This document shows positions 1,082 through 55,360 of a DNA stretch of 64,000 nucleotides, piece by piece (the stretch's first letter is position 1; the number at the start of each line of letters is the position of its first letter). The notes below the pieces were generated by a model. It was not told the DNA's origin and did no database searches. It saw nothing but the letters and a program-made list of their open reading frames with translations. A program made the position numbers and the translations under genes. This DNA comes from Escherichia coli (GTDB lineage: Bacteria > Pseudomonadota > Gammaproteobacteria > Enterobacterales > Enterobacteriaceae), in assembly GCF_050920415.1 (NCBI RefSeq), contig NZ_CP169309.1. One strand, written 5' to 3'.

Positions 1082-1215
1082 ATATAAAAATGTACAAGTT
1101 ACAAGCAATTTCCTAATTAGGAAATATATGACTGTAAAAGAAGATATAAATTAAGCTATTCTTTATCTTCAATAAGCCGCAACCCCGCGGTGATCACCCC
1201 TGACAGGAGTAAACA

Positions 1216-9102: not shown

Positions 9103-11473
<2,371 letters not shown>

Positions 11474-11478
11474 GGCGA

Positions 11479-12378
11479 TCACTCCATCATCTTCTCAATC
11501 GGCAGGACCAGGATTGAACTGGCACCCAGCGCTTTCAGTTTTTCCATCGTTTCCCAGAACAGGGTTTCGCTGCTGACCATGTGCATCGCTACGCGCTGTT
11601 GATCACCCGCCAGCGGTAGAATGGTTGGGCGTTCGGCACCTGGCAGCAGGGCGATGACTTCATCCAGTCGGTCGGTTGGTGCGTGCATCATGATGTATTT
11701 TGATTCGCGCGCCTGGATCACGCCCTGAATACGCGTCAGCAGTTTGTCGATCAGTTGCTGTTTGGATTCTTCCATTTCGCCATCGCGTTGGATCAGGCAG
11801 GCTTTCGAGCGGTAGATAACTTCGACTTCGCGCAGGCCGTTAGCTTCCAGCGTGGCACCGGTGGAAACCAGATCGCAAATCGCATCCGCCAGTCCGGCGC
11901 GCGGCGCAACTTCGACAGAACCGTTCAGTAAGCAGGATTTAAAAGAGATGCCTTTCTGATCGAGATAACGCTTGAGCAGGTGAGGATAAGAGGTGGCGAT
12001 ACGTTTACCGTTTAAGGAGAGCGGGCCGTCCCAGGCTTCATCAACCGGCGTTGCCAGCGAAAGGCGGCAGCCGCCGAAATCCAGACGACGCAGGGTAAAG
12101 TAGCGAGGATCTTCACCCTGGGCGCGGCGGTTAAGCAGCTCTTCTTCCAGCACGTTTTCGCCGATAATCCCAAGGTCAACCACGCCGTCCATTACCAGAC
12201 CGGGAATGTCGTCGTCACGCACGCGCAGAATATCAATCGGCATGTTTTCTGCCATCGCGATCAGGCGCTGGGTGTGAAGATTAATTTTAATGCCGCAGCG
12301 CGCCAGTAATTCGCGTGAGTCATCACTTAAACGGCCGGATTTCTGCATAGCTATGCGTAAACGAGTGTTGTCTGTCAT
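11479..12378 (-). CDS. hisG: ATP phosphoribosyltransferase.
   Basis: The product starts [25 protein letters not shown] and is 299 aa. The upstream ORF extension is rejected. Confidence 0.93.
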
Positions 12379-12423
12379 TTTCTTATTCCTCTTTAAACCT
12401 GTCTGAACCGTTATCAACCGCGC

Positions 12424-12460
12424 AATAAAAAAGCCCCCGGAAGGTGATCTTCCGGGGGCT
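12424..12460 (-). terminator. his attenuator terminator hairpin.
   Basis: On the minus strand the hairpin agcccccggaag(gatcac)cttccgggggct is followed by a U-run, between hisL and hisG. Confidence 0.7.
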
Positions 12461-12523
12461 TTCTCATACGTTCATGCACCACTGGAAGATCTGAATGTCT
12501 TCCAGCACACATCGCCTGAAAGA

Positions 12524-12574
12524 CTAGTCAGGATGATGGTGATGATGGTGGTGTTTAAATTGAACGCGTGTCAT
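12524..12574 (-). CDS. hisL: his operon leader peptide, MTRVQFKHHHHHHHPD.
   Basis: Read from the minus strand, it is ATG then seven consecutive His codons, then Pro-Asp-stop. The plus strand shows gatgatggtgatgatggtggtg. Confidence 0.85.
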   Translation of the reverse strand: MTRVQFKHHHHHHHPD

Positions 12575-12797
12575 AAAAGTCTCTGTGAATGTTTATTCAA
12601 CTGATGTCTTTTAACCTAAACCACTTTCACGTTAGAAAGCAAGGGCTTTTTTATATATTTTATGGCGATGGATTTGTTTAATGAATGAGCGGGGAAAGGA
12701 GAGGGCCAGGAGTGGCTACGTTAAAAAAGTAATCGTGAAAATATGTCTTTAAAACCCTCAAGAACATTGTGTTCTGTAACTAAAGTGGGCTTGGTTC

Positions 12798-12838
12798 CTG
12801 CCGGATGCGGCGTGAATGCCTTATCTGGTCTACAAATG
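12798..12838. repeat. REP element.
   Basis: The sequence ctgccggatgcggcgtgaatgccttatctggtctac matches the REP consensus. Confidence 0.45.
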
Positions 12839-13000
12839 TTGCCTAAATTCAATATATTGATGTTTTTGTAGGACTGATAAGCGGAGCGCATCAGGCAATT
12901 GTATATTTGCTAACAGTTTCGATTTCATTCATAGAATGAATTGTCAGTTTTGATACGCTAGCGTAGCCTTATAGATCTAAGGTGTATCAGGAGATAACGG

Positions 13001-13825
13001 ATGAAAAAGGTCGCAATTGTCGGGTTAGGGTGGTTAGGTATGCCGCTAGCGATGTCACTTTCAGCGCGAGGCTGGCAAGTCACCGGGAGTAAAACCACAC
13101 AAGATGGCGTCGAAGCGGCCCGAATGAGTGGCATTGATAGTTATCTGCTTCGCATGGAACCTGAGTTAGTTTGCGATTCTGACGATCTGGATGCCCTGAT
13201 GGATGCTGATGCGCTGGTCATCACGCTTCCGGCACGTCGTAGCGGCCCCGGCGATGAGTTCTATTTACAAGCGGTACAAGAGTTAGTGGATAGTGCGCTG
13301 GCTCATCATATTCCCCGCATTATTTTTACCAGCTCAACGTCTGTCTATGGCGACGCACAAGGCACCGTTAAAGAAACGACCCCGCGTAATCCGGTGACCA
13401 ACAGTGGACGAGTATTAAAAGAACTTGAAGACTGGCTGCACAATTTACCCGGTACTTCAGTCGATATTCTGCGTCTTGCGGGCCTGGTCGGGCCGGAACG
13501 TCATCCTGGTCGCTTTTTTGCCGGAAAAACCGCGCCTGATGGTGAACATGGTGTCAATTTAGTCCATTTAGAAGATGTTATTGGCGCTATCACCCTGTTG
13601 TTACAGGCACCTAAAGGCGGACACATCTATAATATATGTGCGCCAGCTCACCCTGCGCGTAATGTTTTCTATCCGCAGATGGCCCGTTTACTGGGACTGG
13701 AACCTCCGCAGTTCAGAAATAGTCTGGACAGCGGCAAAGGTAAGATTATTGATGGCAGTCGGATTTGTAATGAACTGGGATTTGAATACCAGTATCCCGA
13801 TCCGCTGGTAATGCCGCTGGAGTAA
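13001..13825 (+). CDS. yeeZ: NAD-dependent epimerase/dehydratase family protein.
   Basis: The 274-aa product starts MKKVAIVGLGWLGMPLAMSL (Rossmann fold). Confidence 0.85.
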   Translation: MKKVAIVGLGWLGMPLAMSLSARGWQVTGSKTTQDGVEAARMSGIDSYLLRMEPELVCDSDDLDALMDADALVITLPARRSGPGDEFYLQAVQELVDSALAHHIPRIIFTSSTSVYGDAQGTVKETTPRNPVTNSGRVLKELEDWLHNLPGTSVDILRLAGLVGPERHPGRFFAGKTAPDGEHGVNLVHLEDVIGAITLLLQAPKGGHIYNICAPAHPARNVFYPQMARLLGLEPPQFRNSLDSGKGKIIDGSRICNELGFEYQYPDPLVMPLE

Positions 13826-13870
13826 ACGATCACGCCAGCAGGACGCCGCATGCACTGCAAGGGGGCGTGT

Positions 13871-14800
13871 ATGAAACCACTGCTGGATGTGTTGATGATC
13901 CTCGATGCCTTAGAAAAAGAAGGCAGTTTTGCGGCGGCGTCGGCCAAACTCTATAAGACGCCGTCTGCTCTGAGTTACACCGTTCACAAGCTGGAAAGCG
14001 ACCTTAATATTCAATTGCTTGATCGTAGCGGTCACCGCGCAAAATTCACCCGCACCGGAAAAATGTTATTAGAGAAGGGGCGGGAAGTTCTGCATACCGT
14101 GCGAGAACTGGAAAAACAGGCGATAAAACTGCATGAAGGCTGGGAAAACGAGCTGGTGATTGGCGTGGACGACACGTTTCCTTTTTCTCTGCTTGCGCCA
14201 CTCATTGAAGCTTTTTATCAACATCATAGCGTGACGCGCCTGAAGTTTATCAATGGCGTACTCGGTGGTTCATGGGATGCCCTGACTCAGGGGCGAGCGG
14301 ATATTATTGTTGGCGCGATGCATGAGCCACCATCTTCCAGTGAGTTTGGTTTCTCACGGTTGGGCGATCTTGAACAAGTCTTTGCGGTCGCGCCCCATCA
14401 TCCGTTAGCCCAGGAAGAAGAACCGTTAAACCGTCGTATCATTAAGCGATATAGGGCGATTGTGGTAGGGGATACTGCGCAGGCAGGCGCTTCTACGGCC
14501 TCGCAACTTCTCGACGAACAAGAAGCCATTACCGTTTTCGATTTTAAAACCAAGCTGGAGCTGCAAATTAGCGGCCTCGGCTGCGGCTATTTACCCCGTT
14601 ATCTGGCACAACGTTTTCTCGATAGTGGCGCGTTAATCGAGAAGAAAGTGGTCGCCCAAACTCTCTTTGAACCTGTCTGGATTGGCTGGAACGAACAGAC
14701 CGCAGGACTTGCCAGCGCCTGGTGGCGAGACGAGATTTTAGCAAATAGTGCGATCGCCGGTGTTTATGCAAAATCTGATGACGGAAAATCAGCCATTTAA
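13871..14800 (+). CDS. yeeY: LysR-family transcriptional regulator.
   Basis: The product starts MKPLLDVLMILDALEKEGSFAAASAKLYKTPSALSYTV, a LysR helix-turn-helix. Confidence 0.85.
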   Translation: MKPLLDVLMILDALEKEGSFAAASAKLYKTPSALSYTVHKLESDLNIQLLDRSGHRAKFTRTGKMLLEKGREVLHTVRELEKQAIKLHEGWENELVIGVDDTFPFSLLAPLIEAFYQHHSVTRLKFINGVLGGSWDALTQGRADIIVGAMHEPPSSSEFGFSRLGDLEQVFAVAPHHPLAQEEEPLNRRIIKRYRAIVVGDTAQAGASTASQLLDEQEAITVFDFKTKLELQISGLGCGYLPRYLAQRFLDSGALIEKKVVAQTLFEPVWIGWNEQTAGLASAWWRDEILANSAIAGVYAKSDDGKSAI

Positions 14801-21751: not shown

Positions 21752-22195
21752 TTAGCGATAGCCTTCTTCTGTATGCAGCAAGGCAAAAAGTTCTGCAACT
21801 CCATTGTTATTAACCGCACTGGTTACTAACACATTGTGCGCTCCAGCTTCCCGTAACCAACTTTTCACCAAAGATATTTGTTCCATACTGGCTAAATCTG
21901 CTTTGGTGACTACTCCAATGACCGGGCGATTCATTGACGAGGTAAAGCCTGGCGAAAAAGGTGACCACGGTGCGTCCGCATTAAGTACCAGCGCGATAAT
22001 GTCTGCTTCGCAGGCACTGACTAACAGAGCACTGTAGAGGCTGCGGTTTTATCGGTGAGGACTGGCAGCAAGATTTCCAGCCTTTTGACGGTGGGCCTGT
22101 GCAATCGTTATCAGATTCGTATAGCGATTATTCAGTGCTGCTATTGATAGCAGCTGAAAGCGAGATATCCGTACCAGAATAGCTCCCTCATTCTG
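21752..22195 (-). pseudogene. eutP/pduV-like (Ras-like GTPase) pseudogene remnant, yoeF-like.
   Basis: The minus-strand translation ...[50 protein letters not shown]... aligns to the EutP/PduV C-terminal half. The N-terminal P-loop is degenerate and there is an in-frame stop. Confidence 0.5.
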
Positions 22196-22519
22196 AGGGA
22201 ACGACGGTAATTTTGATTGCAGAACACAATGCCCGTTTGCTGAATGGTCCGGCTGGTGGGGCTGTAGCATTAATCCATTATTTGAATGAAATCAGTCATG
22301 CCAGAGAAACCGCTGTCAATGACGCATTTTGTCGGACGTTAACACGAGGAAGTCTGGCTATTCCGCAATGCCATCTTCTTTCGTAATGGATTGAGAATGC
22401 TGGATTTTTAATTATATTACGCGCAGTATTAATCGCGTAAATGTTTTGCGGTCAGCAACAGTGGGGGAACCATTGTTCTGTTCAATGAATACCATCATAC
22501 AATTGAATCAGGAGTCGGT

Positions 22520-24896: not shown

Positions 24897-25694
24897 AAAC
24901 GAAAAGTCTGATAAAAGCTATACTTATCGGATAGTATTCGCGACTTAGGAAAGGGACATGATGCGTCGTGTAAATATTTTTTGCTCATTTGCTCTACTTT
25001 TTGCCAGCCATAATAGCCTGGCGGTAACTTATCCATTACCTCCAGAGGGTAGCCGTTTAGTGGGACAGTCGCTTACTGTAACTGTTCCTGATCACAATAC
25101 CCAGCCGCTGGAGACTTTTGCCGCACAATACGGGCAAGGGTTAAGTAACATGCTGGAAGCGAATCCGGGGGCTGATGTCTTCTTACCGAAGTCTGGCTCG
25201 CAACTCACCATTCCGCAGCAACTGATTTTGCCCGCCACTGTTCGTAAAGGGATTGTGATTAACGTCGCTGAGATGCGTCTTTATTACTACCCGCCAGACA
25301 GTAATACTGTGGAAGTCTTTCCTATTGGTATCGGCCAGGCTGGGCGAGAAACCCCGCGTAACTGGGTGACTACCGTTGAACGTAAACAAGAAGCACCAAC
25401 CTGGACGCCAACGCCGAACACCCGGCGCGAATATGCGAAACGAGGGGAGAGTTTGCCCGCATTTGTTCCTGCGGGGCCTGATAATCCCATGGGGCTGTAC
25501 GCGATTTATATTGGCAGGCTATATGCCATCCACGGTACCAATGCCAATTTTGGTATTGGGCTCCGGGTAAGTCAGGGCTGTATTCGTCTGCGCAATGACG
25601 ATATCAAATATCTGTTTGATAATGTTCCTGTAGGTACTCGTGAACCGCCCCGGAAATCCTGGAGACTAAACTTCCTGAGAAAGAGGTAAACAGG

Positions 25695-26021
25695 ATGACT
25701 AAAAATACTCGTTTTTCCCCCGAAGTCCGTCAACGCGCAGTTCGTATGGTTCTGGAAAGTCAGGGCGAATATGACTCACAATGGGCGGCAATTTGTTCCA
25801 TTGCTCCAAAGATTGGCTGTACGCCAGAGACTCTGCGTGTCTGGGTTCGCCAGCATGAGAGGGATACCGGGAGCGGTGATGGTGGGCTCACCACCGCTGA
25901 ACGTCAGCGTCTGAAAGAGCTGGAACGTGAAAATCGTGAACTGCGCCGCAGTAACGATATCCTTCGCCAGGCTTCCGCTTATTTTGCGAAGGCGGAGTTC
26001 GACCGCCTCTGGAAAAAATAA
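25695..26021 (+). CDS. IS629 OrfA, the transposase helix-turn-helix subunit.
   Basis: The 108-aa product ends in the leucine zipper [36 protein letters not shown]. Confidence 0.9.
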
Positions 26022-26908
26022 TGCCACTGCTGGATAAGCTGCGTGAGCAGTACGGGGTCGGACCGGTATGCAGTGAACTGCATATTGCCCCGTCAACGTA
26101 TTACCATTGTCAGCAGCAGCGGCATCATCCTGATAAACGCAGTGCCCGTGCGCAGCGCGATGACTGGCTGAAGAGAGAGATACAGCGCGTATACGATGAA
26201 AATCATCAGGTGTACGGTGTGCGTAAAGTCTGGCGTCAGTTGTTACGGGAAGGAATCAGGGTGGCCAGATGTACAGTGGCGCGCCTCATGGCGGTTATGG
26301 GACTTGCCGGTGTTCTCCGGGGTAAAAAGGTCCGCACTACCGTCAGCCGGAAAACCGTTGCCACAGGTGACCGCGTAAACCGTCAGTTCGTGGCAGAACG
26401 TCCTGACCAGCTGTGGGTGGCTGATTTTACTTACGTCAGCACATGGCAGGGCTTCGTCTATGTGGCGTTCATCATTGATGTGTTTGCCGGATACATCGTG
26501 GGGTGGCGGGTCTCATCGTCTATGGAAACGACATTCGTGCTGGATGCGCTGGAGCAGGCGTTGTGGGCCCGTCGTCCGTCTGGCACCATCCATCACAGCG
26601 ATAAAGGCTCTCAGTATGTGTCACTGGCCTATACGGAGCGACTAAAAGAAGCAAAACTGCTGGCATCAACAGGGAGTACAGGCGACTCGTATGACAACGC
26701 GATGGCTGAGAGCATCAATGGTCTTTACAAAGCGGAGGTAATACACCGTAAGAGCTGGAAAAACCGTGCAGAAGTGGAACTGGCCACACTCACGTGGGTG
26801 GACTGGTATAACAATCGACGATTGCTGGGAAGGCTGGGCCATACTCCTCCGGCAGAAGCAGAAAAAGCTTATTATGCTTCCATCGGAAACAATGATCTGG
26901 CAGCCTGA
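26021..26908 (+). CDS. IS629 OrfB, DDE transposase with integrase core.
   Basis: The 295-aa product has DQLWVADFTYV, HSDKGSQY and YDNAMAESINGLYKAE (DDE). Confidence 0.9.
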   Translation: MPLLDKLREQYGVGPVCSELHIAPSTYYHCQQQRHHPDKRSARAQRDDWLKREIQRVYDENHQVYGVRKVWRQLLREGIRVARCTVARLMAVMGLAGVLRGKKVRTTVSRKTVATGDRVNRQFVAERPDQLWVADFTYVSTWQGFVYVAFIIDVFAGYIVGWRVSSSMETTFVLDALEQALWARRPSGTIHHSDKGSQYVSLAYTERLKEAKLLASTGSTGDSYDNAMAESINGLYKAEVIHRKSWKNRAEVELATLTWVDWYNNRRLLGRLGHTPPAEAEKAYYASIGNNDLAA

Positions 26909-27230
26909 GTTCACAGATAAAACACTCTCCAGGAAACCCGGGGCGGTTCAACTCGTGTACAAATTATTGATCAGCCAGTGAAATACACAACGGAACCGGA
27001 TGGATCAAAGTGGCTGGAAGTTCATGAGCCACTGTCGCGCAACCGTGCGGAATATGAGTCAGACCGAAAAGTGCCTTTGCCAGTAACGCCATCTTTGCGG
27101 ACGTTCATTAACGGGCAAGAAGTTGATGTGAATCGCGCAAATGCTGCATTGCAGCGCCGATCAGGAATGCCTGTGCAAATTAGTTCTGGTTCAAGACAGA
27201 TGTTTTAAGAGCGTTGTTAATTAGAAAGCA

Positions 27231-27263: not shown

Positions 27264-27339
27264 TGGCTCCTCTGACTGGACTCGAACCAGTGACATACGG
27301 ATTAACAGTCCGCCGTTCTACCGACTGAACTACAGAGGA
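27264..27339 (-). tRNA. asnV: tRNA-Asn (GUU).
   Basis: The 76-nt reverse complement reads UCCUCUGUAGUUCAGUCGGUAGAACGGCGGACUGUUAAUCCGUAUGUCACUGGUUCGAGUCCAGUCAGAGGAGCCA. Confidence 0.93.
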
Positions 27340-29670: not shown

Positions 29671-29746
29671 TGGCTCCTCTGACTGGACTCGAACCAGTGA
29701 CATACGGATTAACAGTCCGCCGTTCTACCGACTGAACTACAGAGGA
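29671..29746 (-). tRNA. asnU: tRNA-Asn (GUU).
   Basis: The 76-nt sequence is identical to the other Asn tRNA copies. Confidence 0.93.
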
Positions 29747-31494: not shown

Positions 31495-31570
31495 TCCTCT
31501 GTAGTTCAGTCGGTAGAACGGCGGACTGTTAATCCGTATGTCACTGGTTCGAGTCCAGTCAGAGGAGCCA
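31495..31570 (+). tRNA. asnW: tRNA-Asn (GUU), in the opposite orientation to the other three copies.
   Basis: It reads tcctctgtagttcagtcggtagaacggcggactgttaatccgtatgtcactggttcgagtccagtcagaggagcca. Confidence 0.93.
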
Positions 31571-36259: not shown

Positions 36260-37330
36260 ATGTTTTTAGCATCATTGTTGAGACGTATTGCATTTAGTTA
36301 CTACGATTATAAAGCTAATAATTTCAATATTGAAAAAACAGAGTTTGTTGTCATCCATATTCCCGATCAGATTGGCGATGCTATGGCTATCTTTCCAGTG
36401 ATTCGGGCGCTTGAATTGCATAAAATCAAGCATCTTTTAATTGTTACTTCGACAATTAATTTAGAAGTCTTTAATGCGCTCAAACTTGAACATACTAAAT
36501 TAACATTAGTCACAATGACTATGCAGGATCACGCAACATTAAAAGAAATAAAAGATTTAGCGAAGAACATAACACAGCGATACGGTACGCCGGATCTTTG
36601 TATAGAGGCGATGCGTAAAAAGAACCTGAAAACGATGTTATTTATCAGTCAGTTGAAAGCAAAAACGAATTTTCAGGTTGTCGGTTTAACCATGAAGTGC
36701 TATTCCCCTTTGTGTAAGAACGCCTCCCGGATGGATCAACATCTCCGGGCTCCCGTACCCATGACATGGGCGTTTATGATGCGTGAAGCGGGTTTTCCTG
36801 CAGTCAGGCCAATATATGAATTACCATTAAGCGAGCAGGTAATAAATGAAGTACGTGAGGAATTGTGCACTTTAGGATCTTACATTGCGCTTAATTTAGA
36901 TGGCAGCGTGCAGGAACGCACATTTTCGTTATCAGTAGCTGAGAAACTCATCGCCAAAATTCAAAGTGATAATGATATGCCAATAGTCATTGTTCATGGA
37001 CCAAAAGGGGAAGATAAAGCCCGGAAATTAGCGGGTTGTTATAATAATGTCTACCGGCTATCCTTATCACCCTCGATTAAACGTTCAGCAGCAATCATAA
37101 AAGATGCTTATATCGCAATAACCCCTGATACCTCAATATTACATATGGCAAGTGCCTATAATACCCCCGTCGTTGCAATTTATGCTGATTACAAAACGCG
37201 GTGGCCTGCGATGGCAGATATCTCGGAGTCAGTGGTCGTTGGGCAAAAAATTGATCATATAAGTTTGGATGAATTCGGAAAGGCGCTAAAAAGTGCTTTG
37301 GAGAGAGTATGTGTCAGTACTTACGTATAG
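36260..37330 (+). CDS. yeeL: Glycosyltransferase family 9 (heptosyltransferase-like) protein, apparently intact.
   Basis: A GGAGG ribosome-binding site precedes the ATG at 36260. The product starts [18 protein letters not shown], has ITPDTSILHMASAYNTPVVAIY (GT9 C-terminal motif) and is about 356 aa. Confidence 0.75.
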   Translation: MFLASLLRRIAFSYYDYKANNFNIEKTEFVVIHIPDQIGDAMAIFPVIRALELHKIKHLLIVTSTINLEVFNALKLEHTKLTLVTMTMQDHATLKEIKDLAKNITQRYGTPDLCIEAMRKKNLKTMLFISQLKAKTNFQVVGLTMKCYSPLCKNASRMDQHLRAPVPMTWAFMMREAGFPAVRPIYELPLSEQVINEVREELCTLGSYIALNLDGSVQERTFSLSVAEKLIAKIQSDNDMPIVIVHGPKGEDKARKLAGCYNNVYRLSLSPSIKRSAAIIKDAYIAITPDTSILHMASAYNTPVVAIYADYKTRWPAMADISESVVVGQKIDHISLDEFGKALKSALERVCVSTYV

Positions 37331-37706: not shown

Positions 37707-45695
<7,989 letters not shown>

Positions 45696-46107
45696 GCTTA
45701 CCTTCCCTGAACGAGCTAACATAAATGCGCCCTTTCTAGCACAGCGAAAAAATATAAATCCTGATAGCAATATGATTGAAAATTAATAACTTTTCGTTAA
45801 GCAGTTTTGGGTGTGAGTTGCAAGAGGGGAGACTACTGAATAACTCAGTTTAATAATTGAGGGGGCAATGGTGACGAATATAGGGACGGAGTAGAGAAGA
45901 TAGTGCTGAACTCTTTGCCAGCAGAAGGTTATGTGGCACAAAAATAACCGTAACTTCTCACTCTCGACAGGAAAGCTGTAGACGGCGTCCATAACAAAAC
46001 GCCCCCAACCATAAGGTCGAGGGCGCTTAAGATGACAAACCCGCTCTTCGTTAAAGAATCAATGCTTAATGTAGATGAGTTGCATTGCACGATAAAAGCG
46101 AATTTTT

Positions 46108-46128
46108 AGAATTTGGCTCCTCTGACTG
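46108..46128. repeat. Direct repeat of the tRNA-Asn 3' end, an attR-like island boundary.
   Basis: The sequence gaatttggctcctctgactgg is identical to 54382-54402. It covers 16 nt of the tRNA-Asn 3' end plus 5 flanking nt and then diverges. Confidence 0.7.
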
Positions 46129-46462
46129 GGATCGCCGTAGCCATTAACAGGCTGATTGGTAAAGCTAAAAAAATTTGAGTTTGTCAAGACCACCAGAATG
46201 ACCACCATTTTAAAGTAACATTTGAAGTTTACTCAGTAGCACCTTTAGCTTCACTTACAATCAATTAACCTGTGAAGATAGCTGTACCTACAATCGCAAT
46301 AACTTATTACAGATCCGACGACAAACATCACCTGTTATCCACTCTGGCACTACCGTGCATGATAATCAATAAGTCGGGTGCTGGCTTGCAAGGCAATTGC
46401 GTTGTAATGTACCAAATCCCAGTTCGCCTTCACTCTAAAATGCCCCGACGTTTCGAACGCGT

Positions 46463-47341
46463 TTACGGTAAATAATGCGTGACAATCTGCAGGAACTCAT
46501 CCCGCATCTGGTTGTCGATTTTCGGATTCCATGCCACACCAATGTTCCATATGATCTGCTTTCCCCACAGAGTAATCAGCTTGACTCCTACAGGTAAAAA
46601 ATTCTCGACGCTGGCGGGTAGCAGCGCGAGACCATTCCCTCCGGCTATCAATGCTAGCAGGGAATGAATATCATTCGTCGCAGAGATTGGCTCAATGATG
46701 AGTTCATTATCCCGCAGGAACGCAGTCGTTTGCTCCGCCAGACAAGGGCTGACCGCTGGATCCATGCATAAAATCGGATAGATTGCCAGCGTACGCTGGA
46801 GATCGGTGGGATCAATATCGACGGCTACCGGGACAGCCAACACCAGATTTTCTTTATTTATTAAGCGAGAGGCCAATAATTCTGTTACCGGCATACGAAC
46901 AAAACCAGCATGCAGTTCACCTTCCATCAACATCCTAGCTTGTACGCTGGAGGCAATTTGGCTGATAACAACGTCGCAGTCGGGAAATTTCTGGCGAAAA
47001 GTGTTAATCCAAACTGGTGTGCTTTTAAACGAAGATATACCAAATCCGAGCACCAGTTTACCCGTACTCCCCTTTTGGATTTCTCTGGCGTAGGTTAAAA
47101 AATCGTGGTGGGATTTCAGCAACTCATAAGCTTTAGCAAACAACTGCCTGCCAACCATCGTCAACACTGCCCCGTGGCGACCACGCAGGAAAAGCTGCCC
47201 TCCGGTCTTCTGTTCGAGCATCTTGATCTGCTTTGAAAGCGCAGGTTGTGTCAGAAATAAAGCTTCTGCAGCTTTATTGTAGTTTCCCTTTTCCGCCAGT
47301 GTCACAAATGCACGCAGCAGCCTTATATCTATTCCTGACAT
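46463..47341 (-). CDS. LysR-family transcriptional regulator, divergent from the islet operon.
   Basis: The 292-aa product starts MSGIDIRLLRAFVTLAEKGNYNKAAEALFLTQPALSKQIKMLE. Confidence 0.85.
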   Translation of the reverse strand: MSGIDIRLLRAFVTLAEKGNYNKAAEALFLTQPALSKQIKMLEQKTGGQLFLRGRHGAVLTMVGRQLFAKAYELLKSHHDFLTYAREIQKGSTGKLVLGFGISSFKSTPVWINTFRQKFPDCDVVISQIASSVQARMLMEGELHAGFVRMPVTELLASRLINKENLVLAVPVAVDIDPTDLQRTLAIYPILCMDPAVSPCLAEQTTAFLRDNELIIEPISATNDIHSLLALIAGGNGLALLPASVENFLPVGVKLITLWGKQIIWNIGVAWNPKIDNQMRDEFLQIVTHYLP

Positions 47342-47567
47342 TTATTGAATCCTGAAAAATTGGAATTATACAAATACTCGCAACAGATGACATGATGCGT
47401 AAAATGATTTACGCCGAGATCCCCTTGGTTTGTCAAACTCAGAAACGCCATACCTGCTGCTCTTGGTTCTATTTAACACTCACTAATGCGCAGGTTATTT
47501 ATAAAAATTGACCTCATAAATCATTCAAAAACATTAATTATATAAATACAATAAGGATTAAATATTT

Positions 47568-48167
47568 ATGCCAAATATTGCCGTTCTCACTAATGACCTG
47601 CAGTATGAGTTTACCTACAAAATAACACGCTCTCCAGAAATTCTGGCGCAAAAACTCGTCCAGTTTAATCAGTTTCTCGATGGCATTCGCGCTCTGGATC
47701 AATCCATTATCCACCTGCAACTTATCAACGATCCTAATGACCCGGCGGTACAAAAGCGCTATCGCAACCGCGAAGCGGGCATTCCTGCACTAGCTGGTCG
47801 CCCGGAAAACCAGATTATCGATAAAGTATACCGCCCCACAGATCTGGTTGTAGTCAAGGGCAGAGACAGCGGTTTTTTTAATAACGATCTCGACGAAATC
47901 CTCCAGCAACTCGGGGTAAAAACCGTAATCGTTACCGGGTTGCAAACTCATGTTTGCGTGCAGACCACTGCAGCGGATGCCTTCTTTCGCGGCTATAACG
48001 TCTGGGTACCGGGCGACTGCGTGTTCGCTCCTTCGTCCGAAGATACAGAGCGTGCACTCGAGTGGCTTGCCAGCTATTGCGCAACTGTAGCACCTTCTGC
48101 GGAAATTTTATCAATATTGCAAAAACAGAACGATCTGCCTGAGCGCGGCGAAAGGGAAGCATCATGA
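47568..48167 (+). CDS. Cysteine-hydrolase (isochorismatase/YcaC/N-carbamoylsarcosine-amidase family) protein.
   Basis: The product is 199 aa with a D-K-C triad pattern: D in TNDLQ, K in VVVKGRDSGFF and C in LQTHVCVQTT. It overlaps the next gene as ATGA. Confidence 0.75.
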   Translation: MPNIAVLTNDLQYEFTYKITRSPEILAQKLVQFNQFLDGIRALDQSIIHLQLINDPNDPAVQKRYRNREAGIPALAGRPENQIIDKVYRPTDLVVVKGRDSGFFNNDLDEILQQLGVKTVIVTGLQTHVCVQTTAADAFFRGYNVWVPGDCVFAPSSEDTERALEWLASYCATVAPSAEILSILQKQNDLPERGEREAS

Positions 48168-49195
48168 GCTTAACCCAGACGCTAAATCATGAAGAGGTCG
48201 TTGTACTGGATCATGGCACCGGGGCGAAATTAAGCCGCGAGTTGGTTGAAAAAATTGCTAGCATTCTCGGTGACACCTATCTGGGCGTGATGGAAGATAG
48301 CGCGGTGCTGGGGTTATCCACCAGGCGAATTGCCTTCACCACCGACTCCTTTGTTGCCACGCCGCTGATTTTCGGCAACGGTGATATTGGCAAAATCGCC
48401 GTATGCGGCACCGTTAACGATCTCGCTGTCAGTGGGGCTCGTCCCCTTTACATCACACTCAGTCTTATTATTGAGGAAGGTATGCCGATGGCTGATCTGG
48501 TCAGAATCATCGAGTCCGTACGTGAAACGGCTCGTGAGGCAGAGGTCAAGATTGTCGCTGGTGATACCAAGGTCGTAGGTAAAGGTGAAGCAGATCGGCT
48601 GTTTATCAATACTGCTGGCATCGGCGTGTTTGAACATCCGCCAGTCTCAGTTAAGAACGTGCGTCCGGGGCAGAAAATAATCCTGAGCGGATATATCGGC
48701 AATCACTCGATTCACCTGCTGTCGATGCGGGAAGGATTGGGGTTCGAGCGAAATATTCTTAGTGATTGCGCACCGCTGAACCACATTATTGACAAACTTA
48801 TCAGCAACATCCCTGAAGGCAAAATAGCGTCAATGCGAGACGTTACGCGCGGTGGGCTGTCCGCTGTTTTACACGAACATGCGCGCGCAACAAATTATCA
48901 GATTCATTTCGACCAGCCATCTTTGCCCATACAGCCGGAAACCGCCATGGCAGCTAATATGCTGGGTGTTGACGTCATTAATCTCGCTAATGAAGGTTGT
49001 TTGTGCCTGTTTGTTGAACCTGAGTATGCTCAGAAGGTACTACATTTGCTGCAGGAGCATCCTGTCGGCAAGCACGCGACAATTATCGGCGAGATCACCG
49101 CTGTCTCGGGTACTGAAGTCTATATGATTGAAGCTGATGGAACACACACAGAAGTCGAGGAATTATATGGCGCAGAATTACCCAGACTCTGTTGA
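48164..49195 (+). CDS. HypE paralogue (PurM-superfamily carbamoyl dehydratase) with the C-terminal PRLC cysteine.
   Basis: The product is 343 aa. IAFTTDSFVATPLIFGNGDIGKIAVCGTVNDLAVSGARPLY and DTKVVGKGEADRLFINTAGIG match HypE. It ends ...GAELPRLC. Confidence 0.82.
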   Translation: MSLTQTLNHEEVVVLDHGTGAKLSRELVEKIASILGDTYLGVMEDSAVLGLSTRRIAFTTDSFVATPLIFGNGDIGKIAVCGTVNDLAVSGARPLYITLSLIIEEGMPMADLVRIIESVRETAREAEVKIVAGDTKVVGKGEADRLFINTAGIGVFEHPPVSVKNVRPGQKIILSGYIGNHSIHLLSMREGLGFERNILSDCAPLNHIIDKLISNIPEGKIASMRDVTRGGLSAVLHEHARATNYQIHFDQPSLPIQPETAMAANMLGVDVINLANEGCLCLFVEPEYAQKVLHLLQEHPVGKHATIIGEITAVSGTEVYMIEADGTHTEVEELYGAELPRLC

Positions 49196-51545
49196 GCTTC
49201 ACGAGACGCCGGAAACCCGGCGTTACCGCATCTGTGGGGTCGTTCAGGGCGTTGGATTTCGTCCCTTTGTTCACCGACTGGCCCGCACCTATGGTGCCAC
49301 CGGCTGGGTGTTAAACGATTCAGAAGGCGTGTTGCTTGAGCTGCAGGCATCCGGCACGGTTATTGCCAGAATCATGGACAAACTGGTGACCGAGGCACCA
49401 CCACTGGCAAAAATCATCAGTACGCAGGAAGTTAGCCCAACGGATACCAGAGCGCACTATGAAACGTTCAGCATCCGTAAAAGCCGCGATCATACCAGCA
49501 TGGACACGATTATCCCGCCAGATACCAACGTCTGCAGCGATTGCCTGCGCGAGATAAGCGATCCTGATAATCATCGTTATCGTTACGCTTTCACCAATTG
49601 CACCAATTGTGGGCCGCGCTATTCCATTATTCTTGGTATGCCTTACGATCGTGCCCAGAGCACTATGCGTAAATTCCCTTTATGTCCAACCTGTGAGCGT
49701 GAATACAACGATATTGAGGATCGACGCTATCATGCCCAGCCCAATGCCTGCCCAGTTTGCGGCCCACAGTTGCAACTTACCGATCGACAGGGCACATCCG
49801 TTCACACAGATGATATTGTCAAATTTGCCATTACGAAACTAAAAGAAGGCGGAATTCTTGCAATAAAGAGCCTTGGTGGCTTTCATCTCGTGGCCGATGC
49901 TTGCAATGAGAATGCTGTCAATGAACTTCGGCAACGCAAGCGAAGAGACGCCAAACCTTTTGCAGTGATGGTCGCGGATGTGGAAAGCGCGTCGCGTATT
50001 GCTTTCATCCCCCCCTGTAATCACAAATTGCTGGAAAGCCCGCAGCGTCCCATTGTCTTGTTGTATAAGCGCAACGTCCTGCTGGCGAGTACCGTTGCGC
50101 CACATAATCCGAACATCGGTGTAATGCTGCCTTCAACGCCGCTTCAGCATTTATTGCTGGAAGACCCGTCTCTGCCGATCCTGATTATGACCAGCGGTAA
50201 TATTTCCGGTCATCCGATCGTCTTTGACAACGACATGGCAATTAAGCAACTCGGGAAAATCGCGGATTACTTCATTCTGAATAATCGCGATATTCATACG
50301 CGTGTTGACGATTCGGTGGTCCGCACGGTGTTTCTCAACGACGCCATTACCTCGCAGCTATCGTTTTTGCGCCGCTCCCGCGGTTACGCGCCATACCCTA
50401 TTCATCTACCTTACGCAGTGGATTCCGTTATCGCGCTCGGGGCGGAGCTAAAAAACACGATCAGCATCGGCAAAGGAAAACAGGTTTTTCTGAGCCAGCA
50501 TATTGGCGATCTTAAGAATAACGTGACTTTTAAATCACATATCGAATGTATTGATCATCTTCAAAACCTGCTGAACGTGAAGGCAAATGTCGTGGCCTGC
50601 GATTTGCATCCCTCTTTCCGCTCTACCCGGCATGCGCTGGAGAATTTAGAGCATCAGGTTGTTCAGGTTCAACACCATCACGCGCATATGGCATCCTGCA
50701 TGGCGGAAAATGGCCTGTCAGGTACTACTCTAGGCGTAATTTTTGACGGTACAGGATATGGCACCGACGGCACCATTTGGGGCGGTGAGTTTCTCGTTGG
50801 TGATTTCGAAAAATTCGAGCGTGCAGGATGCTTGCGTTCAATGACCCTGCCCGGAGGCGATCGGGCAGTTAAAGAGCCGCTGCGCGTCGGCATCTCCTTA
50901 CTGGTGGAAACCTTCGGCGAAGATATCAGTACGCTCGCAGTACCAGGCTTGCAGGCGCTCCAGCCTCAGCAGCGCGATATATTCAGTAAAATGGCGACCA
51001 GAAAAATCAACACCACCACGACCAGCAGCATGGGCAGACTATTTGACGGCATCGCCGCGCTGATGGGCGTTTGCACTCAGGTGGAGTACGAAGCCCAGGC
51101 GGCCATTGAACTGGAAGCGCTGCTGCAGTGTAAACTTCATATGACGGCTCCGTTCAGCTACATCATTGCCGATGTCGAGAATAAGCTCGAGGTGGATTAT
51201 CGCCCGATGATAAGGGAACTGGTGCAATGCTTCAGCCAGCCCGGTTTTGATATGGCCGAACTAAGTCGGCGCTTTCACTCTACCATCGTCGACATGATTT
51301 GCGAGGTCTGTAAACGTCTGGTGGCACGCTCAGGCACGCAACAAATTGTCCTGAGCGGCGGCGTGTTCTGCAATGAATTCATCCTCGTTAATTCTCTTAA
51401 CAGTCTGGAGTCTTGTGGATTCCGGCCTTACAGCCATCAGTTAGTTCCGACTAACGATGGTGGTATTTCATTGGGGCAAGTGGTTATTGCTACCGCATAC
51501 ACTCGCGCAACGCGCAATAAAAATCTGGAGAGAGAAAATGCATAG
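49167..51545 (+). CDS. HypF paralogue (carbamoyltransferase) with acylphosphatase, two Zn-finger, YrdC and Kae1-like domains.
   Basis: The product is about 792 aa. The motifs are VQGVGFRPFV, CSDC...CTNCGPRY, CPTCERE...CPVCGP, LGGFHLVADA and VQHHHAHMASC. GAGG precedes the ATG at 49167, which lies inside the hypE-like 3' end. Confidence 0.85.
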   Translation: MAQNYPDSVELHETPETRRYRICGVVQGVGFRPFVHRLARTYGATGWVLNDSEGVLLELQASGTVIARIMDKLVTEAPPLAKIISTQEVSPTDTRAHYETFSIRKSRDHTSMDTIIPPDTNVCSDCLREISDPDNHRYRYAFTNCTNCGPRYSIILGMPYDRAQSTMRKFPLCPTCEREYNDIEDRRYHAQPNACPVCGPQLQLTDRQGTSVHTDDIVKFAITKLKEGGILAIKSLGGFHLVADACNENAVNELRQRKRRDAKPFAVMVADVESASRIAFIPPCNHKLLESPQRPIVLLYKRNVLLASTVAPHNPNIGVMLPSTPLQHLLLEDPSLPILIMTSGNISGHPIVFDNDMAIKQLGKIADYFILNNRDIHTRVDDSVVRTVFLNDAITSQLSFLRRSRGYAPYPIHLPYAVDSVIALGAELKNTISIGKGKQVFLSQHIGDLKNNVTFKSHIECIDHLQNLLNVKANVVACDLHPSFRSTRHALENLEHQVVQVQHHHAHMASCMAENGLSGTTLGVIFDGTGYGTDGTIWGGEFLVGDFEKFERAGCLRSMTLPGGDRAVKEPLRVGISLLVETFGEDISTLAVPGLQALQPQQRDIFSKMATRKINTTTTSSMGRLFDGIAALMGVCTQVEYEAQAAIELEALLQCKLHMTAPFSYIIADVENKLEVDYRPMIRELVQCFSQPGFDMAELSRRFHSTIVDMICEVCKRLVARSGTQQIVLSGGVFCNEFILVNSLNSLESCGFRPYSHQLVPTNDGGISLGQVVIATAYTRATRNKNLERENA

Positions 51546-52278
51546 TTCTGCGAACCGTATTGCCGCTGTTTTATTCGATATGGATGGTGTCCTTATTGAT
51601 TCCAATGCGGTGATTGAGCGCGGCTGGGCTGAAGGCGCACAGATGTTTGGCAAGACGCTAACGGAAGAGGATATCGTCAGGCATATTCACGGACAGCCCG
51701 GCCCGCATACCATTCGCGCCCTGTTCAGCGACCTTTCCCTGGAAGATCAAAAGAAGGTCCAGTCACATATCATCCACGTTGAAAATACCGCTGATTACGA
51801 CCCGATCCCTGGAGTTAGCGAACTTATCCAGGCGTTGCATAAGGCTGGCATCAGTGTGGGGATTGTCACTAGCGGCTGGCGGTCGAAAATCGATCGTATT
51901 ATGGAGATGCTGCAAATCACGCCCTGTATTTCAGTGATTGTCGAACGTGATGATGTCGTGCGCGGCAAGCCTTATCCCGATCCTTATCTGCTTGCCGCAG
52001 AGCGGTTTCATCTTGCACCGTCCAGAACACTGGTCTTTGAGGATTCAAGAAGCGGCGTAACATCTGCTGTTACAGCAGGCGCAATTTGTGTTGGCATCGG
52101 TACAGACAGTCTGAAAGAGTGCGGTGCCGTGCTTGCAATTACAGATTTTCGTAATGTGAAAATCACCTCACAGACAGGCGAAAAAGTAGTGATTGCCTTT
52201 ACTCCAGAGCACCAGATGGAGATGGAAACTCAGAGCTCTCGTAAGAAAACATCCTGTACCACAAGAGAAGAGTGCTAA
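51538..52278 (+). CDS. HAD-superfamily hydrolase (beta-phosphoglucomutase/phosphatase-like).
   Basis: The product starts MHSSANRIAAVLFDMDGVLIDSN (DxDG motif I). Motif IV is in the VFEDSRSGVTSA region. It overlaps the hypF-like stop by 8 nt. Confidence 0.75.
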   Translation: MHSSANRIAAVLFDMDGVLIDSNAVIERGWAEGAQMFGKTLTEEDIVRHIHGQPGPHTIRALFSDLSLEDQKKVQSHIIHVENTADYDPIPGVSELIQALHKAGISVGIVTSGWRSKIDRIMEMLQITPCISVIVERDDVVRGKPYPDPYLLAAERFHLAPSRTLVFEDSRSGVTSAVTAGAICVGIGTDSLKECGAVLAITDFRNVKITSQTGEKVVIAFTPEHQMEMETQSSRKKTSCTTREEC

Positions 52279-53471
52279 TGAATATCACACAGAAGGGACG
52301 CTGGGCTGTCACTATGCTATTTTTTATCAATGGCTTCGTCACCGGAGGTTGGGCTGTGCAAATTGCACAGCTTGTACCACGCTTTGGCGTGACCGACAAA
52401 GTGATCGGCCATTTAATTCTGATCTTCGGATTCGGTGCACTAACCATGATGCCCATATCAGGCATTCTGATGGAAAAGATGGGGACACAAATCGTAACGC
52501 GTATTTTTGCCCTTGCAGCCTCCCTGGCATTAATTCCGGTTGGTTTAGCCACCACCCCATTAGTGTTGATGCCAGCGTTATTTGTTCTTGGTGCGATGAT
52601 TGGTGCCATGAATGTAGCGATGAACTCGAATGCCGTGGCGGTGGAGAGATCACTCTCACAAGCGATTTTATCCTCCTGCCATTGCTTCTGGAGTATCGGC
52701 CTATTTGCGGCGGGCTCGATAGGCGGCCATCTTGTTGAACAATTTGGCTTTTTGACGCATATCTTTTTGATTAGTGCCGTGGCCTTAATACTGACGCTGA
52801 TTATCGCTCCGGCCATTTTTAAAGACATACAGACGGTTAAATCCACCAGCAGACAGACCACCCGGTTGCCTCGTTCTCCGGCGATTTATCTGATTGGATT
52901 GATGGCTTTTCTGGCCATGATCCCTGAATGCGCTGTTGTTGACTGGTCGTCACGCTATTTGATTAAAAATCTCAATGCAAAAACAGAAATCGCCAGCCTT
53001 GCCTTCGCCTGCTTTGCTGTAGCAATGGCCTTGTTTCGCTTTATGGGTGACGTGATCCGCAACCGCTTCGGCGCAATATTAATTATACGAATCTCCAGCT
53101 TACTGGCAGGCGCTAGCCTATTGTTGAGCGCACTGGCACACAATCCCTGGCAGGCGATCTGCGCATTTACCTTAGCGGGAATCGGCATCGCCAACCTTGT
53201 GCCCATTGTCTTTTCCGCAGCGGGAAATCAGCCCAATATTTCCACCAACACAGGAATGAGCATTGCCACAACCATTGGGTATTTAGGCACGCTAATGGCC
53301 CCTGCGCCTATTGGCTATATTGCGGAAATAACCGGTTTTCCAGTGGTTTATTGCGGACTAGCTTTCATGTCGGGAATTATCTTTTTGCTGGCACCACTGG
53401 TTCGGGGGGCAGAAATCTCTGTACAGCGGCAGCGAGCCTCAAACAAACACCAGAATACCGGAGCGTTGTAA
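52278..53471 (+). CDS. MFS transporter.
   Basis: The product is about 397 aa with 12 predicted transmembrane segments. Its ATG overlaps the TAA of the HAD gene as TAATG. Confidence 0.8.
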   Translation: MNITQKGRWAVTMLFFINGFVTGGWAVQIAQLVPRFGVTDKVIGHLILIFGFGALTMMPISGILMEKMGTQIVTRIFALAASLALIPVGLATTPLVLMPALFVLGAMIGAMNVAMNSNAVAVERSLSQAILSSCHCFWSIGLFAAGSIGGHLVEQFGFLTHIFLISAVALILTLIIAPAIFKDIQTVKSTSRQTTRLPRSPAIYLIGLMAFLAMIPECAVVDWSSRYLIKNLNAKTEIASLAFACFAVAMALFRFMGDVIRNRFGAILIIRISSLLAGASLLLSALAHNPWQAICAFTLAGIGIANLVPIVFSAAGNQPNISTNTGMSIATTIGYLGTLMAPAPIGYIAEITGFPVVYCGLAFMSGIIFLLAPLVRGAEISVQRQRASNKHQNTGAL

Positions 53472-54027
53472 TTTCTGCCTGGCAAATACTGTGAAACGCT
53501 GACGCAAATTTTACTTTCCTGCGTATTGTCATCACAGGCCGTACAGACAGTGCGCGGTCTGTTGGCGGATCTGCCTGGTATTTTGCCGATGAACTGAGGG
53601 CGTCCTGCGGGATACGTATCGCCAGGGGCGTGAAACTAATTGATGAGGTGGCGGCATGATGCCGGCGGACTAGCATATCTGCCTTTCGCCGCCTGACATG
53701 TCCTTTGGGGCCGCTGTCAGTTCAGAGTAAAGGAGAAAAAGATCGATACCGAGGGGGGGCACGACGCCCCGGAGACACCCCTGTTTCGTCAGACAGTCTG
53801 TACCGCGTACAGCCTGAAACTCCCTAAACCTCAACAAACTGCCACTTCGACGTGAAGGTATCGTTCTGGCGCAGCCAAAAAGCACATGCCGGAGACTGTT
53901 TTTTTGGTTGTAGAGGGTAGTCATGAGCAAATTAAGTAGTGAAATGAAGGCCCTGACGAAGAAAGCAGGCGGCAGCTTCAAAACGGTAAATGACCGTATC
54001 CATATTACAAAACGGTTCAGTGAGCAT

Positions 54028-54225
54028 TTACGCGAACTGAACATCCAGATCCGGCGGGTATGCGCCAAGACTGACTCTGGATTCTTTTCCGTTGAAACGA
54101 TATTTGAGATACCAGATGCGTGAACCGCCCGGATTGACGAGCAGATACAGACCGTGAGAGTCGGAGAGTTTTACCGGACGGGAAGAGGTTTTTAACTTGC
54201 GGATTTTAGAATCGTTTAAAGACAT
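54028..54225 (-). pseudogene. P4-type tyrosine integrase N-terminal fragment (DUF4102 arm-binding domain), truncated.
   Basis: MSLNDSKIRKLKTSSRPVKLSDSHGLYLLVNPGGSRIWYLKYRFNGKESRVSLGAYP aligns to the IntB/P4 integrase N-terminus. The frame is lost after about 65 aa. It lies 160 bp from asnT and reads away from it. Confidence 0.65.
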
Positions 54226-54386
54226 TTGGGGGTCACTCCAGAATCGAACCAAACTGACCCCAGATCTGACCACCAAATTATCCCGATGCGGAGAGAAAAC
54301 CAGATACGCACCGGGGAGGATTTTCACGCTAACTTACTGAACCGTAAACAAATAGAGATGTACAGATAAGCATGAAAACTTGAATT

Positions 54387-54462
54387 TGGCTCCTCTGACT
54401 GGACTCGAACCAGTGACATACGGATTAACAGTCCGCCGTTCTACCGACTGAACTACAGAGGA
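54387..54462 (-). tRNA. asnT: tRNA-Asn (GUU).
   Basis: The 76 nt are identical to the other three copies. It sits at the islet boundary next to mtfA. Confidence 0.9.
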
Positions 54463-54562
54463 ATCGTGTGAACAGGGCGCATGTTACTTAGCGGTACCTT
54501 GTCTGTCAACACTAAATTTCATAAGTCATTTCAATTGGTTAATTAATCTGCAAAGTTGTTAA

Positions 54563-55360
54563 TTAATGAACATTCGTCGCCGAAAACGAGTCTGTATCAT
54601 TAGCGTGATGCAGTCTCTGCAAAGGATCTTGTTGATAAAATTGGCAGAAACGTTGCCACAATGAAGGGAAACGAGGAGCAAAAAGCTCAGGGGCGCTAAA
54701 GAAATATTCAGAAAGTACGGCAAAACACTCAGCAGGATCACTGGCAGCATAAGCATCGATGCTCGCCGCATTCTCACCGACTAATTCGATCTCTTCCTGA
54801 ATGTTGTTCATTGCGGCATGAAGATCGTGTTCCCAGCCAGCAACCTCACGCAACGGAATAAAGGGAACTCCGCTGGCGCGATCGCCGTTACGGGTGTCCA
54901 GCTTATGAGCGACTTCATGAATAATCAGGTTAAAACCAGAAGCATCAAACGAATCTTGTATATCCAACCAGTTCAAAACGATTGGCCCTTGCTGCCAGCT
55001 CTGACCTGACTGAACAATACGTTGGTTATGCACTAAACCGATATCGTCTTCCCACTCATCATCGACTACAAATGGCGCAGGGTAAATTAAGACTTCATGA
55101 AAACCATCCAGCCATTCTAGCCCTAACTCCAGAACGGGCAGGCAAAATAGAAGGGCTATCCGGCAGCTTCTTAATGAATCCAGCTCAAAGCCCTGTAAGG
55201 GAACAAGCCGTTTTTGCTGTAAAAAACGTTCGGCAAGAGTGACTAATTTGCTTTGTTCCTGTTCTGTCAGGCACGTTAAAAGGGGAATCGATAGTGCTTC
55301 CTGCCAGGGAAGGGCAGTTTGATGTGCTGATTCTTGTACTTTCCAGGGCCACTTAATCAT
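54563..55360 (-). CDS. mtfA: Mlc titration factor A (zinc peptidase).
   Basis: The product starts [23 protein letters not shown], has the HEVAH motif and is about 265 aa. Confidence 0.92.

Follow-up and report, generated by a model that had tools for sequence, protein, structure and literature searches.

The Escherichia coli sequence analysed here, a 64,000-nucleotide stretch of contig NZ_CP169309.1 (the window), covers the asn-tRNA region of the chromosome in the orientation opposite to that of K-12. Between yeeJ and asnT it carries an islet whose cargo is a LysR-family regulator and, divergent from it, five co-oriented genes for an isochorismatase-fold cysteine hydrolase, paralogues of HypE and HypF, a HAD-IA phosphatase and an MFS transporter (Table 1). 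A sequence-only reading of the window had described a LysR regulator and a five-gene operon on an asnT islet of about 8.3 kb with att-like repeats, and this description is borne out: exact 21-bp copies enclose 8,252 bp. Overall, we consider it likely that the segment is what remains of an integrative element, now immobilised, with a hydrolase-HypE-HypF operon as cargo. The island part of this explanation is very likely, and the chemistry that we propose for the cargo is tentative.

The islet and its borders at asnT

The complete tRNA-Asn that the sequence-only reading had recognised at one end of the islet was found by ARAGORN as well, and is, like the three other tRNA-Asn genes of the window, identical to K-12 asnT (76/76). 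The 21-mer GAATTTGGCTCCTCTGACTGG, made up of the last 16 nt of this tRNA and the 5 nt downstream of it, recurs exactly at the far end of the islet (matches expected from dinucleotide-preserving shuffles, 0.00). This distal copy had been noted as exact, as indeed it is, and placed at 46108-46128, one base away from its actual position. Within it, 46114-46129 repeat the 16-nt tRNA-Asn 3' end and 46109-46113 (GAATT) belong to the native flank downstream of asnT. Since the remaining matches in the window sit on paralogous asn tRNA genes (an exact one at asnV, 27259, and one with a single mismatch at each of asnU and asnW), the copy at 46109 is the sole one without a tRNA gene. Functionally, the core amounts to the 16-nt tRNA end, extending to 20 nt if the shared AATT is included; the 21st base of the repeat matches only at asnT and asnV, whose native flanks happen to have G there.

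K-12 provides the empty site. There the distance from asnT to yeeJ is 370 bp, and the alignment follows the window to 46129 and picks up again at 54382, so that its boundary is exactly the repeat. Because K-12 closes in this way, the 8,252 bp that the repeats enclose are an insertion, as seen in a base-by-base empty-site alignment with this one genome.

Beyond the distal repeat, about 80 bp are common to islands with hypEF, RHS, PAAR or no cargo and to a copy in Raoultella. Both this terminus and the island-derived arm beside the tRNA hold a pair of heptamers (Table 1). GACCACC occurs in 8 copies in the 64-kb window, 3 of them in the two arms, and we regard these repeats as candidate arm-type integrase sites.

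Two differences from K-12 lie on the yeeJ side of the distal repeat. About 106 bp of the yeeJ-asnT intergenic region (45875-45980) are missing in K-12, and the 150 bp leading up to the repeat have 84% identity to K-12, between flanks of 97% and 95.5%.

A family of asn-tRNA elements and the truncated recombinase module of the islet

For a survey of carriers, 5,426 complete E. coli genomes were searched with the cargo (46130-53500) as query. It is present in 15 of them (0.3%), with one further, truncated copy in WL297, and is lacking in K-12; the segment is not core, in agreement with the sequence-only reading. In 13 carriers the cargo lies between yeeJ and asnT, and 12 of these align without interruption across both junctions, the thirteenth, 2020CK-00188, doing so in two pieces. 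MFDS1022581 and 2013C-4282 are among the carriers. The other two carriers, NY1601 and Z1323HEC0462, have the cargo at asnV, adjoining nac and cbl, in an 11.9-kb long form whose P4-type integrase is full-length but frameshifted. These asnV copies are bounded by a copy of the tRNA end too, their far border reading GAATCTGGCTCCTCTGACTGG followed directly by the island sequence found in the window. The repeat had been expected to coincide with the boundary between presence and absence, and it does so both here and in the K-12 alignment.

In about 500 of the 5,426 genomes the match is confined to the final ~700 bp of the islet and falls into two pieces separated by 3.6-3.9 kb. These matches are sibling islets, occupying asnT, asnU, asnV or asnW, with a 420-amino-acid (aa) integrase, a convergent 294-aa second recombinase and different cargo, and their integrase has about 92-97% nucleotide identity to the remnants in the window. 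The conserved module comprises Int, the second recombinase, a 153-aa protein without a Pfam match and an HTH_35 protein. The cargo is of RHS/TPR type in strains A29 (at asnU) and W13-16 (at asnW), and of RHS type in ATCC 8739 (at asnT). In N47 (L029 1-9172, at asnU, integrase intact) it consists of NACHT- and HEPN-domain genes and a RelE/ParE toxin-antitoxin pair, which suggests that the family carries defence-type cargo too. EC6563 (L020 1908-6121, at asnT) shows the minimal backbone: its 'empty' element of ~3.9-4.1 kb has nothing but the conserved termini, the second recombinase and an integrase gene interrupted by an internal stop codon. Weaker integrase matches, of ~86% nucleotide identity, were considered as the Yersinia high-pathogenicity island (HPI) and rejected; they proved to be a NACHT/HEPN sibling islet.

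All of these islands, at asnT, asnU, asnV and asnW, were scanned for the 16-nt tRNA end. In every island examined, what stands ahead of the distal repeat is the native downstream flank of whichever tRNA gene is occupied, a flank that differs among the four asn genes; after the repeat comes GATCGCCGTAGCCA / GATCGCC(G/T)TAGCC. The occupied tRNA, in turn, is always preceded by the island flank atgaaaacttgaatt (also given as atgaaaacttgaat(t/c)), with one base different in EC6563. Judged from sequence, this border pattern bears the signature of site-specific recombination inside the tRNA end. In the window, asnV, asnU and asnW are unoccupied and have their native flanks, and therefore no sibling integrase is encoded at the hotspot in this window.

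The intact integrase of the family has the domains Arm-DNA-bind_3, Phage_int_M and Phage_integrase and shares 49.8% identity with phage P4 Int across 98% of its length, which justifies the 'P4-type' label given in the sequence-only reading. The family resembles P4 in this domain architecture, in integration at a tRNA 3' end and in the candidate arm repeats that flank the core in both. Such an integrase, the tRNA integration usual in P4-like elements and the small helix-turn-helix (HTH) gene that accompanies the module would all suit a decayed P4-like satellite prophage in place of a genomic islet. We nevertheless find this very unlikely, as neither the long form nor the siblings have an annotated primase, capsid-size, Psu/Sid/Delta or phage-type gene (annotation and Pfam). 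The family also differs from P4, which integrates at leuX, in targeting asn tRNA, and it has no P4 replication or helper-exploitation genes.

What is left of the integrase in the window starts 161 bp from the tRNA 3' end, covers part of the arm-DNA-binding domain and is 55/57 identical to the intact 420-aa Int of A29, WP_000055676.1. The sequence-only reading had called this integrase dead, correctly so, with 57 of 420 codons left and the catalytic domain gone. Its estimate of about 65 codons holds for the first 57, and the last 8 are read-through past a deletion junction. The collapse of the frame that it described is not borne out; the cause is a 2.9-kb deletion, which also truncates the convergent second recombinase (43/46 identical to the intact A29 protein). 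Aligned with the long form of NY1601 (L002), the window matches L002 2974-10556 and 11288-11663 and misses 10557-11287 (731 bp) and 11664-14570 (2.9 kb); 8,252, 2,907 and 731 bp together make up its 11.9 kb. The 731-bp deletion took an HTH pseudogene along with a portion of a hypothetical gene, as annotated in L002; together the two deletions account for the loss of the HTH gene, of 86% of the integrase gene and of most of the second recombinase. The one-piece asnT carriers share the deletion junction, which points to a single ancestral integration-and-deletion event. Six carriers were inspected at the level of annotation: the deleted integrase is found in all four that have the islet at asnT, the frameshifted one in both that have it at asnV. 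We take the element to be no longer self-mobile, though neither core and none of the candidate arm sites is damaged.

These results are consistent with the following history, in which the mechanism of recombination is inferred by homology to P4-type systems. A P4-type tyrosine integrase would act on an attP core whose sequence equals the terminal 16-20 nt of tRNA-Asn and could recombine it with each of the four asn genes, which are identical. On integrating at asnT, the element would have restored a complete tRNA and placed a duplicate of the tRNA 3' end at its distal border. Before the deletions it would have measured ~11.9 kb and run from the tRNA through the integrase, the second recombinase, the small HTH gene and the cargo to the conserved terminus and the repeat; a later 2.9-kb deletion at a 9-bp microhomology and another of 0.73 kb would then have cut the recombinase module.

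If instead the segment were ancestral to E. coli, and had been lost from K-12 and most strains by recombination between the 21-bp repeats, the deletion would yield the K-12 junction exactly, and a composition indistinguishable from that of the neighbouring genes would be in keeping with such a history. This is hardly credible, however, when only 0.3% of complete genomes carry the segment, when integrase remnants lie beside the tRNA, when the distal repeat duplicates the tRNA end and adjoins a terminus common to islands with unrelated cargo, and when the hypEF islet occurs at asnV as well.

Some results weigh against the reading as a remnant of an integrative element. The sequence-only reading had pointed to base composition, and to the same cargo beside intact P4-type integrases, as places to look for confirmation, and neither supplied it. 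The G+C content (GC) of the islet is 0.491, against 0.477 in the rest of the window, and its GC at third codon positions (GC3) is within the range of its neighbours; neither GC nor GC3 of the islet or of any cargo gene is skewed relative to neighbouring core genes. For this reason the composition test is uninformative, and atypical composition is a common but not obligatory feature of islands. No hypEF cargo lies beside an intact integrase in the annotation of the window and six of the 15 carriers, or in 80 species loci (the best 80 of 183 hydrolase relatives from a scan of species representatives), where an integrase within 10 kb of the operon was found in 0/80. In Citrobacter, Pseudescherichia, Atlantibacter and Salmonella no integrase neighbours the operon. 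As to the distal repeat, three Citrobacter loci (L011-L013) have no extra 16-mer at up to 2 mismatches and the Citrobacter and Pseudescherichia loci L033-L035 no extra exact one. From this, the link between cargo and element could be a secondary one.

Within Enterobacterales the operon has a patchy distribution, with a recurrent association with the asn-tRNA hotspot. In Citrobacter and Pseudescherichia it abuts a tRNA-Asn 3' end; in Atlantibacter and Salmonella diarizonae it is located elsewhere. The hydrolases of Citrobacter, Pseudescherichia and Atlantibacter have ~80% amino-acid identity to that of the islet, and the closest one outside Escherichia is that of Raoultella (95% amino-acid, 88% nucleotide identity). 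In Raoultella terrigena NBRC 14941 (L032 8553-10922), sequence with 88% nucleotide identity to window 46110-48489 starts exactly at the repeat, here a 16-nt copy of the tRNA end without a tRNA gene, and stops inside the HypE paralogue gene. This copy holds the LysR gene, the hydrolase gene and the start of hypE, and is cut off by an unrelated 733-aa open reading frame (ORF) on the opposite strand. A search for a recent donor identified none, the Raoultella hydrolase being the nearest.

As an island, the islet is an ordinary addition to those that use P4-type integrases at asn tRNA genes. In E. coli the HPI lies at asnT, in agreement with the sequence-only reading, having entered via a P4-type integrase, and is immobile and decayed with its right repeat lost; in Y. 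pseudotuberculosis any asn tRNA gene can be used (PMC8209727). The islet likewise uses an asn tRNA gene and a P4-type integrase and is immobile at asnT, but it keeps both direct repeats, has its integrase deleted, lacks ybt/irp/fyuA and carries six cargo genes of other identities, the LysR/hypEF operon. The pks (colibactin) island, with a P4-like integrase, is found at asnW, asnU or asnV, whose tRNA sequences are identical (PMC8209727); the islet family is multi-site in the same manner, whereas pks is 54 kb long with clb genes, and the islet is 8.3 kb (11.9 kb in the long form) with unrelated cargo. Siblings such as those in ATCC 8739, A29, W13-16, N47 and EC6563 share the integrase, the convergent second recombinase, the tRNA-side flank, the distal terminus and the 16-bp core, and differ in having RHS/PAAR toxin modules, NACHT/HEPN defence-like genes or no cargo, as well as in abundance (~500 against 15 of 5,426 genomes). 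The islet is in this respect a small dead passenger of little import at a well-known E. coli hotspot. What the comparison documents is a compact element family with a fixed recombinase module, conserved termini and interchangeable cargo, at all four asn genes.

The hydrolase-HypE-HypF cargo

The part worth following is the cargo, in which a highly conserved pair of HypE and HypF paralogues is tied to a cysteine hydrolase, often in biosynthetic-looking clusters. HypE and HypF make the cyanide ligands of [NiFe]-hydrogenases. Both paralogues in the islet match the NCBIfam equivalog models over full length and have canonical HypE and HypF as their best solved relatives, and all five Pfam domains of HypF (acylphosphatase, two Zn-finger, YrdC-like and Kae1-like) are matched. 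Each is 39% identical to its K-12 counterpart, against 61-79% (HypE) and 49-69% (HypF) to paralogues from Citrobacter, Burkholderia, Sorangium and Streptomyces. All 8 HypE paralogues compared end in ELPRLC; K-12 HypE ends in PLPRIC.

The hydrolase has 47-95% identity to its relatives across phyla. D10, K97 and C130, which we take to be the Asp-Lys-Cys triad from their position and what is known of the family rather than from a structure, are invariant in 24 sequences from four phyla. Among solved structures and named families it is without a close relative: its closest solved structure (57 bits) is an N-carbamoylsarcosine-amidase-related protein, and it has weak NCBIfam matches to RutB and biuret amidohydrolase. 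The best NCBIfam match of the HAD phosphatase, a sugar phosphatase, is below cut-off, and for the LysR regulator no NCBIfam equivalog reaches its cut-off. A scan of 46000-54500 for promoters and terminators gave counts not above shuffled expectation, with only ordinary candidate divergent promoters between the regulator and the hydrolase gene.

Among the best 80 species loci, the genes immediately downstream of the hydrolase encode a HypE paralogue in 77 and a HypF paralogue in 75, and the order of the trio is kept in Enterobacterales, Burkholderiales, Myxococcota and Actinomycetota. Beyond the trio no neighbour is universal. In Enterobacterales the neighbours are LysR, HAD and MFS genes; the Burkholderia operon adds a GlmS-isomerase-like SIS gene, an amidohydrolase gene and a nitrilase-superfamily gene. 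In Sorangium they are a 4,160-aa non-ribosomal peptide synthetase (NRPS), an ABC exporter and a glutathione S-transferase, and in Streptomyces an aminotransferase, an M20 peptidase and ATP-grasp-like ligases. A wider conserved actinomycete cluster was considered and rejected, the aminotransferase, M20 peptidase, MFS and ATP-grasp-like genes being found in a subset only. The Pfam neighbour lists of the inspected loci contain no HypA, HypB, HypC or HypD family and no hydrogenase structural genes, and the islet likewise holds neither; canonical hypE of K-12 lies within hypABCDE, beside the hyc operon.

These patterns bear on whether the two paralogues are spare maturation factors for [NiFe]-hydrogenases, used for instance under other conditions, with the neighbouring genes as unrelated passengers. 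Such a role is favoured by the full-length equivalog matches of both proteins and by the kept C-terminal cysteine, in an ending PR(I/L)C common to both HypE groups. However, the islet pair is a distinct group, its 39% identity to the resident E. coli proteins contrasting with 50-80% to paralogues from Streptomyces, Sorangium and Burkholderia. It is also obligately linked, in fixed order, to a specific cysteine hydrolase (75-77 of the 80 loci), with no HypC or HypD family in the inspected neighbour lists, and in other phyla it adjoins NRPS, ATP-grasp ligase or aminotransferase genes. Of orphan hypE/hypF beside a Streptomyces ATP-grasp gene it has been written that they 'have adopted a novel function', its authors concluding that such genes serve another purpose (PMC7794033). 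A spare maturation role is on balance unlikely. That passing remark is all that a literature search on the trio, on HypE-like and HypF-like proteins and on orphan hypEF in natural-product clusters returned, within a coverage that leaves out most subscription journals.

Starting from established HypEF chemistry (PMC12130793, PMC4506123), a route for the cargo can be proposed. HypF would activate carbamoyl phosphate and carbamoylate the C-terminal cysteine (Cys343) of the HypE paralogue, which would dehydrate the carbamoyl group to a protein-bound thiocyanate. The cysteine hydrolase would take the place of the HypCD iron scaffold and hand the C1-N unit, as a cyano or a carbamoyl group, to a small metabolite that bears a phosphate; the HAD phosphatase would then dephosphorylate the product and the MFS pump export it. 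Relatives of the hydrolase, the N-carbamoylsarcosine and biuret amidases, form S-carbamoyl-cysteine intermediates. We hold this scheme to be possible rather than probable. Weighing against it, the substrate, product and acceptor are all putative; the hydrolase could equally act before HypF, releasing carbamate from a ureido compound, or as a true hydrolase; the spare maturation role discussed above is compatible with the sequence; and the promoter and terminator counts of the region do not exceed chance.

The trio may, speculatively, be a hydrogenase-independent cassette for an enzymatic cyanation route not yet described, leading from carbamoyl phosphate via thiocyanate to small molecules. Such a cassette would be a plug-in module in the amino-sugar-like operons of Enterobacterales and Burkholderia, in the Sorangium NRPS cluster and in the Streptomyces ATP-grasp/aminotransferase clusters, with the tRNA-Asn integrative element as its carrier in E. 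coli. If the trio does transfer a cyano or carbamoyl unit to metabolites, this would be new enzymology, and in the rare E. coli carriers it could be studied in a host with convenient genetics.

Features of the islet and its surroundings

The positions of the features discussed above are collected in Table 1, together with the genes that surround the islet.

Table 1. Features of the asnT islet and neighbouring genes, with positions in the 64,000-nucleotide window
Feature	Position	Strand	Remarks
LysR-family regulator	46463-47341	minus	Divergent from operon; Pfam HTH_1 and LysR_substrate; WP_000014150.1
Isochorismatase-fold cysteine hydrolase, 199 aa	47568-48167	plus	Pfam Isochorismatase PF00857, E 3.2e-32
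HypE paralogue, 343 aa	48164-49195	plus	TIGR02124, 415 bits (cut-off 251.6); best PDB match 3VTI chain C
HypF paralogue, 792 aa	49167-51545	plus	TIGR00143, 788 bits (cut-off 466)
HAD-IA phosphatase, sugar-phosphatase / beta-phosphoglucomutase type	51538-52278	plus	Pfam HAD_2, E 2.9e-32
MFS transporter, 397 aa	52278-53471	plus	Pfam MFS_1, E 5.6e-28
Distal direct repeat (attR-like core)	46109-46129		Exact match; K-12 alignment stops at 46129
Conserved island terminus (candidate P' arm)	46130-46215		Starts GATCGCCGTAGCCATTAAC; tandem GACCACC heptamers at 46188 and 46200, 12 bp apart
Non-coding backbone remnant	53472-53922		Holds 731-bp deletion junction at 53683/53684
Second recombinase, codons 1-46	53923-54060	plus	Phage_int_SAM_2 / Integrase_1; Pfam E 3.8e-18; 294 aa when intact
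2.9-kb deletion junction	54051-54059		9-bp microhomology CC(A/G)GCGGGT; BLAST segments overlap at 54047-54059
P4-type integrase, codons 1-57	54055-54225	minus	Pfam Arm-DNA-bind_3, E 1.7e-13; RefSeq partial pseudogene
Island-derived tRNA-proximal arm	54226-54386		GACCCCA/GACCACC at 54256 and 54268, 12 bp apart, oriented as the distal pair
Proximal direct repeat (attL-like core)	54382-54402		Overlaps tRNA 3' end: 5 nt downstream and 16 nt of tRNA
tRNA-Asn(GTT), asnT	54387-54462	minus	ARAGORN; intact
asnV	27264-27339	minus	
nac, cbl	between asnV and asnU		
asnU	29671-29746	minus	
yeeO	between asnU and asnW		
asnW	31495-31570	plus	
yeeN, amn, shiA, glycosyltransferase gene, yeeJ	after asnW, in that order, then islet		
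mtfA, serU	beyond asnT, on the side far from the islet		

Several observations concern these surroundings. At 37707-45695 the annotation gives yeeJ as an intact allele of 2,662 aa, and yeeJ pseudogenes occur in several of the strains compared. An intact glycosyltransferase family 9 gene (36260-37330) lies between shiA and yeeJ, the position that the yeeL pseudogene takes up in K-12. Strain MFDS1022581 has 100% identity to window 45600-54700. According to its RefSeq annotation, ldtA (erfK), which adjoins asnV at 24960-27208, is interrupted by a frameshifted IS3-family transposase gene at 25697-26908; this call lies outside the part of the window for which the 100% identity was shown, and the tRNA coordinates match exactly. 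The pdu/cbi region at 21754-22388 consists of stubs only, a partial EutP/PduV gene and a cobalamin-biosynthesis pseudogene, at a position where NY1601 has a complete pdu operon. At the start of the window (1-1083), where the O-antigen region ends near gnd, ugd and wzzB, two neighbouring ORFs for sulfatase-like hydrolases/transferases look like one gene split in two.

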